The notes beneath the pieces were generated by a model that worked only from the letters and a program-made list of their open reading frames with translations, searched no databases and was not told where the DNA came from. Shown piece after piece: positions 3,391-27,924 of a DNA stretch of 64,000 bases. Origin of the DNA: Octopus vulgaris. Taxonomy: Eukaryota. Each line of letters begins with the position of its first letter. Positions within the stretch are counted from its first letter, which is position 1. Both the position numbers and the translations under genes were made by a program. Where the stretch lies: the NCBI GenBank assembly GCA_951406725.2, contig OX597834.1, positions 18,104,001-18,168,000 on the forward strand. The letters run 5' to 3'.

Positions 3391-6355
3391 TTTTAGCATT
3401 CAAATTATTCTGTCAAATCTATTGTTTATTTATTCACATTGTTTTGGATTAAGTTGTGCTTCAGTTTTTTTCAGTTGATGTTAAGTATAAGATAGTACAG
3501 CTTATACGTGAGTAAACACAGTGTCTTTTTCCATCTTGTAAATTCTGGGAACTGGTGCATATGTAAGAAATTCATTGGTAAATTCTATAAAGCTATACTT
3601 CAATTGTCATCAGAGAATTATGTAGCCCTGCTAATTGGTTGATTGTGTGGTGTTACTGAAAGACTGGTTCTTGCAAAGGGTTTCTACTATTTCTTTTCAT
3701 CTTGTAAGTTCCATGGCCTTACATTTAATATAATTAACGTAAACAAGACCTTCACTTGGTCAGAAATAGCAGCTAAATCTTCCCCAAATTAACACTATCC
3801 TCCTCCTCCTGTTGTCGTCATCATCATCATCATTCTAACATCCACTTTCCCATGCTTGCATGGGTTGGATGGGATTTGTAGAGACAAATTATTTATTATA
3901 TGGTTATAGTTCTTCAAGGCCCTGAAAAAGATCTCCAAGGAACCCTCAACAGAAATATAATAACAAAGGATAAAACTGGGAATAATTAAAATGAATTGAA
4001 AAAGAAAATGAACAAATTTGTCTGACAACCCAACATAGAAAGAGGGAGATGAATCTGTGATGTAGAGTAAGCTAATTTATTGAAGTGATCAATAAGAACT
4101 CTTTCCCATTTGTCTAAACCATGACCAAAATATTTCAAATCATTGCACACCATTAGCTGGAGCTATAATGTCTTAGTAAACTCTGGCAAAGCAACAAAAA
4201 CTATCAGAGAGGTACAGAAAGTTATCATAGTATTGTAGAAAACTATCATAGTGTTATTGGAACAACTTAGTTTCTTAATTTCCCTTCTCCAATCATATAG
4301 ATAAATATAAATACATGTATATATGTGTATATATATATATTGAAATAGAATAGTGAATCAATACAAAAGTGAATCCTAAAGAATTAATCTGTTAGATAAC
4401 CATGTCAGATCCCATATATAAATCAATATATATTTGTTTGAACTTTTATGGCTGTTTAAATATCTGTACAGAAGAACATCAATACATGGAAGGAAAGGCT
4501 GTTTTAATGCACAAATTTCCAGAACAGAATAAAAAGTCTGACTGAAGTGAATTTCAATCTAAAACTAAATGTTATTGTGAAATACAGTATAATTTAAGAA
4601 AAGAATTATCAAATAAATGGTGTGCAAATCTCTGACTGGTCTCTTATGTACTTCTCACCAAACATTGCAACAATATTTGTCCATTATACTTTCTGATTCT
4701 CTTTTTCTGTGACAATAGAAAGGAAAATAGATGGGAAAGGAAATCAATGACAGCAAAATGTGTTTCTGTATTATGGAATGTATTTGGTTGTTAGATAAAT
4801 TTGTTTGTTTTTCTACTTGGCACTCCATTGTCATACGTTTGGAAAGAGGTAAATCATCATCATCATCATTTAGCGTCCGCTTTCCATGCTAAGTATCATA
4901 GTATTGTAGAAAACTATCATAGTGTTATTGGAACAACTTAGTTTCTTAATTTCCCTTCTCCAATCATATAGATATGTGTATATGTGTATATATATATATT
5001 GAAATAGAATAGTGAATCAATACAAAAGTGAATCCATGCTAAAATTTATTTGAATTTCAAAATTAATAAATAAAAGCTGTAGAGGAAGAACAGGGCTAAA
5101 AAAAAACAAAAGTCATCCTAAAAAATTCCAATAAAGATATTTTTGTGTTAATTCAAATAACCTTTTTGATACCAAACTGTCTGAGACTGCCTCTGGGTTG
5201 ATGATACAAACTTTATACATAATGTTATCTAAATTAAAACCCTCCATCAAAATTTCAAGTTAATTCCCTAAACACCAGCTTAATTCTGACAACGATATTT
5301 CAATAAATTATTCATTATTTTCAAAATCAATTGAAACAGAAAAATATAATAACAAAATGGATAACACCGGAAATAATTTAAATGAATTGAAAAAGAAAAT
5401 GAACAAATTTGTCTGACAATCCAACATAGAAAGAAGGAGATGAATCTGTGATGTTGAGTAAGTTAATTTACTGAAGAGATCAATAAGAACCTATTAATGA
5501 AGGTCTTGTCAACTCCATACATGAATCAGTATAAAATTGTTTGGAATCTTGATTGTTCAGATGAACTATAACATTGCTCCAGGGAAGCAAAGGGCAATCT
5601 CAAGATTTCTAGTCTAGAATAGAGCTAAATTGAACTGAATATTTGTACAATATACCCTAACGGTAAATATGATTGTATCAAATGAATATAACTTTAAATG
5701 CTGACACAAGCTCTCAGGCATTCATCACCAACCATTGTATCCGTATTCATCCATTCACATGACAGCTTAAATGGAGAAAAATAGCAAAAAGTAATAATGA
5801 GAAAAAATTGAAAAATAACAAATCCTTTATAGCTTTTAACCACTGCATGTCAATGGAGAAGATAGAATAAAATAAAATAAAAATATTCGAAGTCTTCAGC
5901 ATGCCAGTAGTTAATGAAGCTACAAGAAGAATTGAGAGAAGGTAGTTGTTCTGTTCTTGAGTTCATGATACCTTGAATGTCATTGAAATGTCAAAGAGTT
6001 TACTAAGAATTTTGGTGAATATTGATTTTTAATGTAGGGAAAGAGCCACACATTTTGGGTTAAAGAATAGTCAATTATATTGACTCCAGTACTTGACTAG
6101 TACTGTGCATTTTATTGATCAGGCAAAGAATTGAAAAGCAAAGTTGATCTCAGCAGGATTGAAGCTCAGAGACACGAAAAAAAAAGCAACTAAAAATCAG
6201 AAGACATTTTCCCCAATGTTATACCAATTCTAGCAATCCCATCCATAAATATTAAACTCTAAATCAAGAGTTCAAGTTGAGTTATGTAATTTATAAGGTC
6301 AGATGATACAATACATCACACAGTAAGTTTTTTAAAATTTACTTTCTTACTCAGC

Positions 6356-6845
6356 TGAATATAATTCACAAGCCAATGTTGTTATTCACTAGCCAAGACT
6401 GTTATTCACAAGCTAAGACTTATTCATAATCCAATATTGTTATTCATTAGCCAAGACTGTTATTCATTAGCCAAGACTATTATTCACTAGCCAAGACTGT
6501 TATTCATTAGCCAAGGCTGTTATTTACTAGCCAAGATTGTTATTTACTAGCCAAGACTGTTATTTACTAGCCAAGACTGTTATTTACTAGCCAAGACTGT
6601 TATTCACTAGCCAAGACTTATTCACTAGCCATGACTGTTATTCACTAGCCATGACTGTTATTCATTAGCCAATGTAGTTATTCATGAGCCATGACAGTTA
6701 TTCACTAACCGAGGCTGCTATTCATAAGCCAACGTTGTTATTCATTAGCCAAAACTGTTATTCCATAGCCAAGACTGTTATTTACTAACCAAGGCTGTTA
6801 TTCAATAACCAAGACTGTTATTCATTAGTAAATGCAGTTATTCAG
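6356..6845. repeat. 20-bp minisatellite, about 24 units
   Basis: Tandem GTTATTCACTAGCCAAGACT, homogeneous in the centre and degenerate at both ends. Confidence 0.95.
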
Positions 6846-22700: not shown

Positions 22701-22957
22701 TTTGTTTAGCAGTTGTTCAATAATAACATTAACTCCATCAACCTCACACTTGAGATACGGTTTTGAAAAGGTTTTGCACACAGATCCTTCCTTCAGACCA
22801 ATTTGTTAATGAGTTAGAAACATTTTGGTGTCACTTTGGTTATAAGCTAATAAATTCTTTCTTTCTTTTCTTCTTTTAGCAAATGGTCTCACAAGGCTTG
22901 TGAAGATCCAAAAAGGGACCATGCTTATGACCTTCACAAGCCCTGTAGAGATCAGTG

Positions 22958-23190
22958 AGGCGGCGAGCTGGCAGAAACGTTAGCACGCCGGGCGAAATGC
23001 ATAGCCGTATTTCGTCTGCCATTACGTTCTGAGTTCAAATTCCGCCGAGGTCGACTTAACCTTTCATCCTTCCGGGGTCGATAAATTAAGTACCAGTTAC
23101 ACACTGGGGTTGATATAATCGACTTAATATCTATGTCTGTCCTTGTTTGTCCCCTCTGTGTTTAGCCCCTTGTGGGTAGTAAAGAAATAG
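22958..23190 (+). mobile_element. SINE family B with Meta-domain-like core
   Basis: Head GGCGGCGAGCTGGCAGAAACGTTAG, B-box GAGTTCAAATTC, and CCTTTCATCCTTCCGGGGTCGATAAATTAAGTACC (Meta-domain-like). Confidence 0.88.
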
Positions 23191-23837
23191 AGGCTGTAGC
23201 AGTTGATGTTCTTATAGAAAAACTATGACTGAAGAGAAAATTTCAAGGAGGAGATTTTCTGGAAGCAAAAGACATTCTATATTATTTGCAAGGTGTTATC
23301 TTGTTTGTTGTTACCACGTTTTGACTGAGCACAGTCGGTTTACCCGATGATAAAGGCCTCTTGGAAAAGATACAAAAGATAAGTGGTCCACATGACATCA
23401 GGATGGTATTTAGAAGTAATAAAAACATTTTGCAAATATCTTCTCTGAGTAAAACCACCCACAGAAGAGAATATGACCAAAAACTGCTTGTACTCTATCC
23501 CATGCAGTTGTGGTAGGCTATACAAAAGTGAAACATACCGCCCCCTTAAAGTAAGGGTAGAGGAACATTATAAAGCTGTGTCACAAGGGGATATTGAACA
23601 ATTGGGTATTGCCAATCATGTATGGAATAATGGAGACCACCTCCCGCTGTGGGATGAAGTTAAAATAACCAGCAGAGAACGCCATTGGAAAATATGAAAA
23701 TTAAAAGAGGCTGCACATATGCTAGGACACAATAACCTCCTAAGCAGACCTAGTGCAGATATGAATGTAATATGAGAACCAGTATTAAGAAAAGATAAAA
23801 TGCTAGGTTTATAAGCCCTAAACTTCACTCTATAATT

Positions 23838-23909
23838 ATCCATATAGCATAGTGGATAAGAGCATGGGCTATTAACCCTAGAATTCTAAGTTCAATGCTT
23901 GGCAGGGTC
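23838..23909 (+). pseudogene. Degenerate tRNA-like segment
   Basis: TAGCATAGTGG A-box, GGG-CTATTAA-CCC anticodon-like arm, and CTAAG-TTCAATG-CTTGG T-arm at canonical spacing. The acceptor stem pairs poorly, so this is not a functional tRNA. Confidence 0.55.
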
Positions 23910-24014
23910 TTGAAAAATAACACCAACAGAAAGAAAACAACATCAGCAACATACCTTAGGAATGAGAACAGTGTGCCCCAGGAGTCAAATAAAGGGTTGG
24001 GTTTGAAATTCCGC

Positions 24015-24066
24015 CAGAACACCTGATGAAGGCTGGAGAGTACATCAGCTGAAATGTGATAATAAC
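24015..24066 (+). ncRNA. Degenerate hammerhead ribozyme of the Penelope-like element
   Basis: CTGATGA (24023-24029), stem II GGCTG...CAGCT, GAAA (24051-24054). The stem III/cleavage triplet region is decayed (GAAATGTG, probably from GAAACG). Confidence 0.6.
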
Positions 24067-24990
24067 AAACAAGATGAGGACACCTATTCGTCCATTGTAA
24101 ATAATGTACATAATTCCTCATCCTGAAAATATAGAAAATCCATTCTGGATATAATACAGAGCCAAGAGAGGCAGACATGTTATGGGTGATGAGAAAAGAA
24201 CAACACCAGCTTCTTTCTTTTCCTCACCCCAAGATAAAAGAAAAGGGCCTAAAATAATAGATTCTTTACTCTGGATAGCAACCGAACCTATCAATGCATT
24301 AATTTATTTGGTTCTATTTATGCTTTATCACGAATAACTAATTTTTTTTTAAAAAAGGCTATAAATCAATTTATTTGGATTTCACTTTGTAAAGCATATA
24401 AACTTCAATAGTTCCAGATTGTGGAAATACAAAAAAAAATTGGCAAGAGTAGGAGTGTTGTGGTTTGTTTGATGTAATGCAGAATATATATAAGACAGGA
24501 AAGACTATGTTAATGGTAATGTAGATGGAACATGAAACATCAATAATAGCAATAACAAAGATATTGAAATGTTAATTCAGAAATATTTAATTAGTCTTGA
24601 TATTTTGGTTTTAAAGTATACATTAGGGAGGCATGAGATTAAATAAAAACTTGGCCTTGTGAAGGGTCCATTCATTGGAGATGGGAAAAGAAGATAACAT
24701 CCGAAATATTAGATTTCACTTCATTTCATGGAATGTAGCTTCTACATGGATCGCATGATCTGCTAGAAACAGTAGCCAAACCTCTCTCAAGATAGGAAAA
24801 ACATATTGGATAATGTAACCCTAGATGTACTACGTCAGAATAAAAAAACAGGATGGGCTGGTCATGATTGGAGTACATAGAGTTCATAGTTCTACTTGAT
24901 AAGGACCTACTTGGAGCTAAGCAACAGTCACAACAACAACAAAAGCAGCAACAGCAGCAGCAGAAGCAGCTATTTAGTTTTTATTATCAA

Positions 24991-26887: not shown

Positions 26888-27443
26888 TGTAAGAATTAAC
26901 ACTTCCTTCTCTAAGCCTAGATTCGAAACCGAATCCAAGGATTCTCGGTCGTCCAAACCACGACGATCAACAGGTGCGAAAAAAGGTTTCCTTTGTCCTG
27001 TCAAAAATTGATTGATCATCTCCCTTTGACCTCATCATGTCAGGCGAAGTTCAAATGGAAAAGCGCTGACCTATTTAGGTACTAACTCACCTGCAGTACG
27101 TCTGTCTTTCTAGCTGCCACTTTTTATTATAAATACAAGGGTGAAACAGAAAGGCAATCGCAGCAGACAGACAAGATAGATCTATCTACGACCCAAAGGT
27201 TTTTGGCAGACGATAGAGACAGAGAGAAATGCTCGAAGTGCCGATCGACTTCTGTTTCGAATGAAACATGCACACACACAAACATATTCATTCCTAATAT
27301 GTACTCTGTATTTCTAGCAACTCGTAGCTGTTGCCTACATTTTTGTATGTAGTGTACCTCTAACGAATCAAGTCCTGTAAATAAACTCTTTTCAATCATG
27401 AATCGGTTTACATATTTGTTTACATACACACTTAACCACTACA
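26888..27443 (+). mobile_element. Solo LTR (556 bp, Ty3/gypsy-like) inside a piggyBac-type MITE family 2 (26654-27482)
   Basis: TGTA...TACA termini with 4-bp TSD AGAG (26884-26887 and 27444-27447). TATAAATA near 27128 and AATAAA near 27380. Removing it rejoins the MITE. Confidence 0.8.
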
Positions 27444-27696
27444 AGAGGTAGTTCCAGGTGGGTTGGTATCAAAAGGGTTAAATATTTATTTTGTTATGTC
27501 TGCTTTTTTGTCTTGTTGTATCGCAGCCCTATTTCCCATTCACAGTGCAACTCTACCCACTCACCCCTACCATTTTGTCCTTCACCCTTTTGGCAATTCT
27601 GAAATCACCAAAGCATTCTTAGGTCTTATTTATGTCACAATCCTGGCAAGAATATCTGTGGAGTCTGCTTCTCTCTACCTTTATCTGCAATTAGAA

Positions 27697-27924
27697 ACTC
27701 ATATTATGCGGAGAAAATCCCTGGAGAAGGACATCATGCTTGGAATGGTCAGTGGCAAGAGAGGAAGAGGCCGACCAAGAACCTACTGGCTTGATACCAT
27801 CAAGAGTGATACCGGAATGGACATAGCCAGTCTGAAAGAAGCGGCCCAGGATAGAACTGACTGGAGGACACTGATCCAACGAGTGACTGAGAGTTGACTT
27901 CGACTGAGTGGTTAGAAGAAGAAG
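27697..27924 (+). mobile_element. RTE/BovB-like LINE 3' fragment
   Basis: Encodes HIMRRKSLEKDIMLGMVSGKRGRGRPRT.WLD..., the same family as 3105-3390. (GAA)n tail. Confidence 0.92.

Follow-up and report, generated by a model that had tools for sequence, protein, structure and literature searches.

A Penelope-like element family of Octopus vulgaris with a tRNA-derived head in its terminal repeat, a candidate internal Pol III promoter

The window copy and its family

The window analyzed here is the whole stretch of 64,000 nucleotides of Octopus vulgaris DNA (contig OX597834.1, positions 18,104,001 to 18,168,000), and coordinates are given from its first letter. Judged by its sequence, the feature under study is a decayed, 5'-truncated Penelope/Poseidon-type element (PLE) that belongs to an abundant family. 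Its parts are as follows.

23294..23328, minus strand: piece of the element's own pLTR in inverted orientation, from just 3' of the hammerhead core (blastn against family copies, 79 to 95% identity, best E value 2e-7)
23324..23814, plus strand: 3' end of the PLE open reading frame (ORF), linker and GIY-YIG-type endonuclease, with frameshifts and stops (tblastn)
23808..23814, plus strand: TATA-like heptamer that overlaps the stop codon and lies about 28 nt upstream of the putative start site (sequence)
23838..23840, plus strand: putative transcription start, in the family the G of a short GCCC-AC-GGGC palindrome (5' ends of head-first copies)
23838..23912, plus strand: tRNA-derived head, with D arm and 3-bp anticodon-like arm (alignment to tRNA genes, family alignment)
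23845-23855, plus strand: A box of the head
23890-23898, plus strand: B box of the head
23913..23961, plus strand: A/C-rich leader from the head to the start codon (family copies)
23962..23964, plus strand: putative start codon of the PLE ORF, repeated here in the 3' pLTR (the frame from the same site enters the ORF in locus L227)
24018..24060, plus strand: minimal type I hammerhead (core 24023-24029, stem II 24031-24050, GAAA 24051-24054)
24061..24138, plus strand: remaining pLTR to the distal of two family 3' end points (~24136), copies ending near 24104-24115 or near 24136; roughly the last 30 nt are the PLE tail

The ORF remnant ends at the stop codon at 23812-23814 and matches the C-terminal part of PLE proteins in tblastn searches (E values of 6e-63 with the family frame and 4e-57 with the outside protein P0003). 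It shares 83 to 87% DNA identity with 39 other scored copies. The inverted 35-nt pLTR piece abuts the 5' truncation point, which is a typical PLE insertion signature. This copy is truncated past the reverse transcriptase (RT) domain, which was assigned from longer family copies; the ORF of one of these (L219) matches Pfam RVT_1 with an E value of 5.5e-10. A preliminary description of the locus had read it as a PLE relic, which these matches bear out, and had placed the ORF remnant, the tRNA-like segment, and the hammerhead core (24023-24054) correctly; it had overlooked the inverted pLTR piece and the start codon at 23962. The TATA-like heptamer beside the stop codon is retained in most ORF-linked copies, its role in a promoter being putative. 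The transcription start site is decayed in the window copy and is followed by a 6-nt deletion, the copy lacking 6 nt at the 5' end of the head relative to the family. As an individual, the window copy is dead and without evident function.

Searched at the DNA level, the 2.8-Gb genome from which the window comes gave 3,139 candidates. An exact 33-nt hammerhead pattern had 152 genomic matches and an exact 34-nt head pattern had 1,729, while the reversed control of each had none. These motifs, though individually weak, are real, because the ORF, head, and hammerhead are kept in the same order across hundreds to thousands of copies and because the heads align to tRNA genes far above shuffles. The family protein has 1,007 homologues, and the best matches have the same domain sets. 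Its C-terminal domain can be matched to outside relatives motif by motif as a GIY-YIG endonuclease, and two homologues carry PF01541; Pfam did not name the endonuclease in the window remnant or in the family copies examined. The label Penelope/Poseidon is the probable one given the order of the domains, the place of the hammerhead, and an anole protein with 40% identity. Family copies are 5'-truncated, frequently with an inverted 5' piece, and have a pLTR from a partial tandem and a tail; pLTRs of this origin, inverted 5' pieces, and a tail of 30 to 40 nt are given as PLE features in passages of PMC8557442. The 3' ends of copies fall mostly into two clusters about 30 nt apart, with 47 of 108 in one and 32 of 108 in the other, and only the spacing of these clusters is used below.

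Two subfamilies were recognized: A, which includes the window copy, and B, which has an (AAT)n linker and in which the leader is an (AAT/AAC)n microsatellite. Subfamily B repeats lie 11 to 13% off the column majority, and on this basis the family is old. No intact ORF was seen among the copies examined. A scan of viral contigs for relatives of the family found none, and with a more distant PLE protein as the query, this head-bearing family alone was recovered.

Other features of the window lie outside the element. At 22955-23190, about 100 nt upstream, there is an unrelated dispersed repeat that is SINE-like by eye and has at least 7 copies in the window. A tandem array with a 20-nt period occupies 6337-6832, and a 153-codon frame lies at 27436-27897; the second half of this frame resembles the C terminus of an RTE-type LINE protein.

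The tRNA-derived head and the layout of the element

The tRNA-like segment had been proposed as a constant part of the family's pLTR, and it proved to be one. Copies were selected by the endonuclease region alone, as the best 29 of 2,414 candidates, excluding the window copy; 28 of the 29 have the head after the stop, in both subfamilies. By eye, a full or partial head stands directly behind the stop in 26 copies and after an unrelated insertion in 2, and 1 copy breaks off before the head. A further sample consisted of 91 heads from the first 90 head-pattern matches on one chromosome, obtained with a pattern search that is blind to the flanks, and 76 of these are followed by the ATG site or the hammerhead. 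Individual reading of the remaining 15 revealed deletions, expanded microsatellites, or unrelated breaks; a second common body behind them was not found.

The head is tRNA-derived, as judged from its likeness to the genome's own tRNA genes, against which heads score at z values of 6 to 10 above shuffles (best tRNA per head, 10 heads, one of them at 4.9). As parents, Thr-TGT, Arg-TCG, and Arg-TCT score alike among the 11 tRNAs tried, a sample that left Arg-ACG and many others outside. The head profile reaches 65 bits at the window copy, which is itself a row of the alignment, versus at most 8.9 bits elsewhere in the window. ARAGORN detected no tRNA in the window, and Rfam found neither a tRNA nor a hammerhead in the region or in 20 family loci, returning simple-repeat miRNA matches only. 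Single-strand folds of the head and the hammerhead were no better than those of shuffles (z of −0.04 to −1.5). The cloverleaf is not conserved in the family: the acceptor stem is 54% paired and the T stem 52% paired, and covariation of the head stems beyond shuffles was not found in the family alignment. The T arm that had been described as well paired is an accident of the window copy, since 2 of its 5 pairs do not form in most of 45 family rows (in 44 for one pair and in 40 for the other). A working tRNA gene was rejected on these grounds, the acceptor and T stems being about half paired and ARAGORN and Rfam being silent. The A and B boxes are retained in both subfamilies while the cloverleaf shows no covariation, as would be expected for a head that serves as a promoter only. 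The two boxes stand at tRNA-like spacing, and the putative start lies about 13 nt upstream of the A box; the box consensus used agrees with motifs quoted in PMC10886601.

The upstream edge of the head is also the edge of most copies that contain it. In 74 of the 91 heads, the copy starts with the head, and in 17 it runs on upstream into the ORF. The 5' end lies 0 to 10 nt upstream of the head anchor in 68 of the 74 head-first copies, with the mode at 9 to 10 nt (28 copies); this modal end is the first G of the small palindrome, a G that precedes the tRNA-like part by about 6 nt and the A box by 13 nt. Inverted family sequence stands directly upstream in 44 of the 74, and the 30 without a recognized inverted piece share the same edge. 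An independent sample was selected by the hammerhead and comprised 92 motifs, drawn from 89 loci among the 152 pattern matches. Of its 92 5' ends, 30 fall within the 40 profile positions where the head starts versus 11 in the 240 positions upstream; a further 7 lie still further upstream and 44 lie downstream.

The order of parts in the element is head, leader, ATG, hammerhead, ORF, stop, head, leader, ATG, hammerhead, and tail. At locus L227, the head, leader, ATG, hammerhead, and tail are followed by the N-terminal ORF. This is the only complete head-to-ORF junction among the long copies examined, L217, L240, and L296 having shorter 5' repeats. In the pLTR, only about 25 nt separate the stop codon from the head. 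This layout and the pile-up of 5' ends point to the head as the 5' end of the whole protein-coding element.

The short head-first copies appear to be solo repeats of the same family. Comparison of short with ORF-linked subfamily B repeats (100 versus 31) found 0 of 233 columns differing after Bonferroni correction, and the main spacing variants, those of short copies included, keep the reading frame. On present evidence, then, the short copies show no sign of a separate SINE lineage. An independent tRNA-SINE lineage was rejected on the 0 of 233 diagnostic columns and the lack of a second body behind the heads. Sampled loci are mostly single or inverted copies, and no head-to-tail arrays of the short unit were seen among them.

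Runs of T in the sense strand and the hammerhead in the reading frame

Pol III terminates at sense-strand runs of at least 4 T (here T4), as PMC3141230 also states. In the head-bearing family, no T4 site was found that is common to even 25% of the covering copies. Counted over 2,633 sense-strand columns (84 copies), runs of 1, 2, 3, and at least 4 T number 385, 74, 13, and 0, respectively. The internal expectation over those columns is 2.3 to 4.6 T4 runs (P of 0.08 to 0.01), and G4 runs are absent from them as well; on this expectation the depletion is modest, and its significance is moderate overall. Fourteen decayed single copies hold 17 T4 runs, which is 0.31 of expectation. Taken singly, three frames gave no significant result in codon-shuffle tests (P of 0.11 to 0.38).

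The stronger comparison is with controls from outside the family. For one of these, 80 metagenome loci of PLE relatives were reduced to 36 clusters with one representative each; their headless status comes from the A/B pattern and from ARAGORN on 45 of the 80 loci. T4 runs occur at 4.2 per kb over all these clusters and at 2.9 per kb over the 23 whose T content is similar. The latter hold 92 T4 runs in 32 kb, from which 7.6 would be predicted for the family (Poisson P of 5e-4, the controls being overdispersed). Three of the 36 clusters have no T4 in 1.2 to 1.7 kb of ORF. One of these three, on the metagenome contigs L389 and L332, combines a 1.7-kb ORF without T4 with a T-rich pLTR and no head, which shows that T4-free frames arise without a head too. 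No A/B pair was found downstream of the ORF in the 36 clusters where a flank was available. One metagenome contig (L314) has a tRNA-like A/B pair about 484 nt upstream of its PLE ORF match, outside the element's repeats, which resembles a flanking SINE.

Two PLE families of the same genome, obtained through a search for the GIY-YIG family, served as a closer control. In one, a GIY-YIG family with the same base composition (T 0.21, A 0.40), three 781-codon frames (2.34 kb) have 9, 8, and 9 T4 runs plus 4 T5 runs, and in the other there are 8 T4 runs in 574 codons. No A/B pair was found in the repeats of either family. By eye, these repeats contain CCAAT-, CRE-, or TATA-like words. A young family in the window's genome (L511 to L513) has many near-identical 781-codon open frames; its pLTR consists of repeated CCAAT- and TGACGTC-like units, and the plain hammerhead pattern has no match just behind the ORF.

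The hammerhead is of the minimal type I form described for PLEs in part of PMC4209133. Its place in the pLTR, as first described, is a family trait, but it also lies inside the ORF, 60 nt downstream of the start codon in one subfamily and 33 nt in the other. The spacing from ATG to core is mainly 33 nt (170 motifs) or 60 nt (61 motifs) and is in frame in 245 of 297, and the spacing from core to tail is in one frame in 119 of 151, counts that include some loci twice. A loose hammerhead pattern by itself has 2 matches in the window versus 3.5 expected by chance.

The full form, with core, stem II, palindromic stem III, and UU triplet, is found in 74 of 117 motifs in pattern-selected loci and in 30 of 44 in ORF-selected ones, CpG decay counted. 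A form that is 3 nt short and has no NUH accounts for 11 of 117, 8 of 37, and 6 of 44 motifs; it keeps the reading frame and recurs in both subfamilies, and inheritance and repeated slippage would look the same in the present data. The other 32 of the 117 pattern-selected motifs are otherwise altered. Pairing in the family is 95% for stem II and 62% for stem I, and covariation of the hammerhead stems beyond shuffles was not found. The window hammerhead has this short form: it lacks the 3 nt after GAAA and with them the NUH cleavage triplet, and it is predicted to be inactive. Loss of the triplet, which had been named among the grounds for giving up the proposal, is a property of this copy but not of the family, in which 74 of 117 motifs have the full form. 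Three other loci of the genome (L253, L256, and L269) contain hammerhead-like motifs with an unrelated stem II, and neither a tRNA head nor a PLE ORF is present within 1.5 kb of them.

Transcription of the element: readings and known systems

The constant head, the 5' edge, and the T4 depletion make a Pol III promoter inside the pLTR, as the preliminary description had suggested, the best reading of the element. We consider that this autonomous PLE is probably driven by an internal, tRNA-derived Pol III promoter that serves the whole protein-coding element. We hypothesize that Pol III would initiate at the G that precedes the tRNA-like part by about 6 nt and, with no oligo-T terminator in its way, would continue for about 2.9 kb, across the ORF and into the downstream repeat. 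Translation of the uncapped RNA would begin at the AUG that follows the A/C-rich leader, and this is the weakest step of the scheme. The RT/endonuclease protein would prime at internal sites 50 to 80 nt past the hammerhead cut site, as in PAc. Reverse transcription begun in the downstream repeat would give ORF-bearing, 5'-truncated copies like that in the window, and a start in the upstream repeat, or on short transcripts, would give the commoner SINE-like copies of about 300 nt from head to tail. With the palindrome at the 5' end of the RNA, a finished cDNA could fold back and prime itself, which would produce inverted duplications. Cleavage by the hammerhead would sever the AUG from the ORF, so that it may act as an off switch or in a late step rather than in template release. 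A short self-cleaving RNA, or a retrozyme or SINE precursor, had been put forward as a possible product of the element; that this is its main product is not supported, as the hammerhead lies inside the frame and the short copies are not distinct.

A fuller version of the history, in which the PLE swapped a Pol II promoter for a captured tRNA promoter, lost its sense oligo-T runs, became fully transcribed by Pol III, had its RNA translated via the A/C-rich leader, used the in-frame hammerhead as an off switch, and spawned thousands of SINE-like solo repeats, is put forward with somewhat less confidence. A published opinion that the processivity of Pol III is too low for autonomous elements, found in passages of PMC10886601, counts against the Pol III-driven reading. 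Since the family is old and no intact ORF was seen, the promoter may no longer work in an in vivo test. Contigs from sequencing runs presumed to be RNA cover the family but do not show start sites, and they speak neither for nor against this reading.

The labor might instead be split, with Pol III making short pLTR RNAs that the PLE protein mobilizes like SINEs and Pol II making the full-length mRNA, either from the TATA-like word that longer partial tandems contain or by read-through. The excess of head-first short copies over ORF-linked ones (74 versus 17) fits such a division, and a capped mRNA would remove the translation problem. The TATA-like word stands at about −28, a position that fits Pol II or Pol III equally, and TATA-like words were seen by eye in the pLTRs of other PLEs. 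Drosophila Penelope, for its part, has a LINE-like, TATA-less internal promoter (passages of PMC2377424). Division of labor would, however, leave the T4-free state of the whole ORF unexplained, and the absence of any diagnostic column in the short copies, with their main length variants in frame, suggests that they descend from coding masters. The 25 nt or so from stop to head are, moreover, too short for the long Pol II-type region of other PLEs. We regard this alternative as unlikely.

Less probable still is a passenger head, an old SINE or tRNA insertion in a master element whose palindrome stops the RT or triggers fold-back on a longer Pol II RNA. The pile-up of 5' ends does coincide with the palindrome, inverted family sequence does lie directly upstream of 44 of the 74 head-first copies, and 17 of 91 copies do pass through the same site. 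A hairpin of 4 to 5 bp, however, is unlikely to halt about 80% of cDNAs, and the 30 of 74 copies without a recognized inverted piece end at the same edge. The A and B boxes, moreover, are retained in two subfamilies, and the T4 depletion would go unexplained. Finally, a chance tRNA-SINE insertion in the window copy, or a head belonging to a separate SINE family with its own body, deserves almost no credence: the window is full of tRNA-type SINEs, and Rfam and ARAGORN miss the head, but the head is at the same position in nearly all ORF-linked copies, 76 of 91 heads lead to the ATG site or hammerhead, and the other SINE heads in the window score at shuffle level against the head profile, so that the family data refute the chance insertion, which the preliminary description had also doubted.

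PLEs are already known to have hammerheads, tails, and promoters in the pLTR, and the element is best compared with five systems, as they are described in passages of the papers cited. The closest is PAc (Poseidon_Ac of the green anole; PMC11167929), which likewise has a single ORF with RT and, at its C terminus, a GIY-YIG-type domain, the cut site of a minimal pLTR hammerhead inside that ORF, two 3' end points separated by about 30 nt, 5' pieces in inverted orientation, and a hammerhead that is apparently dispensable for insertion. In PAc, the cut site follows the start codon by 26 nt, mutants of the hammerhead retain insertion in vitro, reverse transcription starts in vitro at internal sites 50 to 80 nt past the cut site, and the promoter is said only to be likely in the pLTR (PMC11167929). 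Unlike that of PAc, the octopus pLTR begins with a tRNA-derived head with A and B boxes, and its sense strand has no T4. Penelope of Drosophila virilis (PMC2377424) also has its promoter internally, within the pLTR and at the transcript's 5' end, but that promoter is TATA-less and LINE-like, with Inr, DPE, and an intron.

The Schistosoma elements Sm-alpha and Sj-alpha (PMC6765202, PMC2770079) resemble the octopus unit in coupling a tRNA-related, Pol III-type promoter to a hammerhead in a short mobile unit. Sm-alpha is non-coding and often tandem, and cleavage releases its monomers (PMC6765202, PMC2770079), whereas the octopus unit is the terminal repeat of a coding element, occurs mostly singly or in inverted pairs, and has its hammerhead in the coding frame. 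The TRIMp3 elements (Cassandra, Helenus, and Ajax; PMC10886601) have a small-RNA-derived Pol III promoter in the terminal repeat, with a non-working tRNA part, as in the octopus family. They are short, non-autonomous LTR elements, whereas the octopus PLE encodes its own RT and endonuclease; that 2024 paper argues that the autonomous partners of TRIMp3 must use Pol II (PMC10886601). Animal non-LTR retrozymes (PMC7229834; bioRxiv 10.64898/2026.07.22.740005) are hammerhead-bearing short units related to PLE pLTRs, but they form tandem arrays, unlike the octopus copies. In the portions of PMC7229834 consulted, "tRNA" refers to ligases and a mention of tRNA processing, and the text of the retrozyme preprint, as far as it was available, mentions neither a promoter nor Pol III. 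A PLE with a tRNA-derived promoter was not found in the accessible parts of the open literature, a search that left Repbase, Dfam, and SINEBase outside, so that the short form may be catalogued as a SINE; main-text passages of two cephalopod repeat papers (PMC13282606, PMC8967140) do not mention one.

Pol III promoters in mobile elements have so far been described for short, non-coding passengers (SINEs, TRIMp3, and Sm-alpha). A 2.9-kb RT/endonuclease element read by Pol III, if true, would break the rule that autonomous elements need Pol II and would require translation of an uncapped RNA. It would also offer a route to a Penelope-mobilized SINE without any fusion event, and the head-first solo repeats link PLE pLTRs to Sm-alpha-like hammerhead SINEs. 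With promoter, leader, and ribozyme within 300 nt, the repeat is a compact test system. For annotation, thousands of head-first copies would pass as tRNA-SINEs though they are solo repeats of a PLE.

Two minor observations concern the 5' edge of head-first copies. By eye, the loop of the palindrome occurs in either orientation among them (L003, L013, L147, L431, L443, and L460), as if a terminal hairpin had been opened either way. At two loci of the window's genome (L435 and L440), a sense piece of the element's N-terminal ORF followed by an A run is joined exactly to the first G of the head, a junction that resembles a template jump from the 5' end of the RNA to an oligoadenylated fragment.
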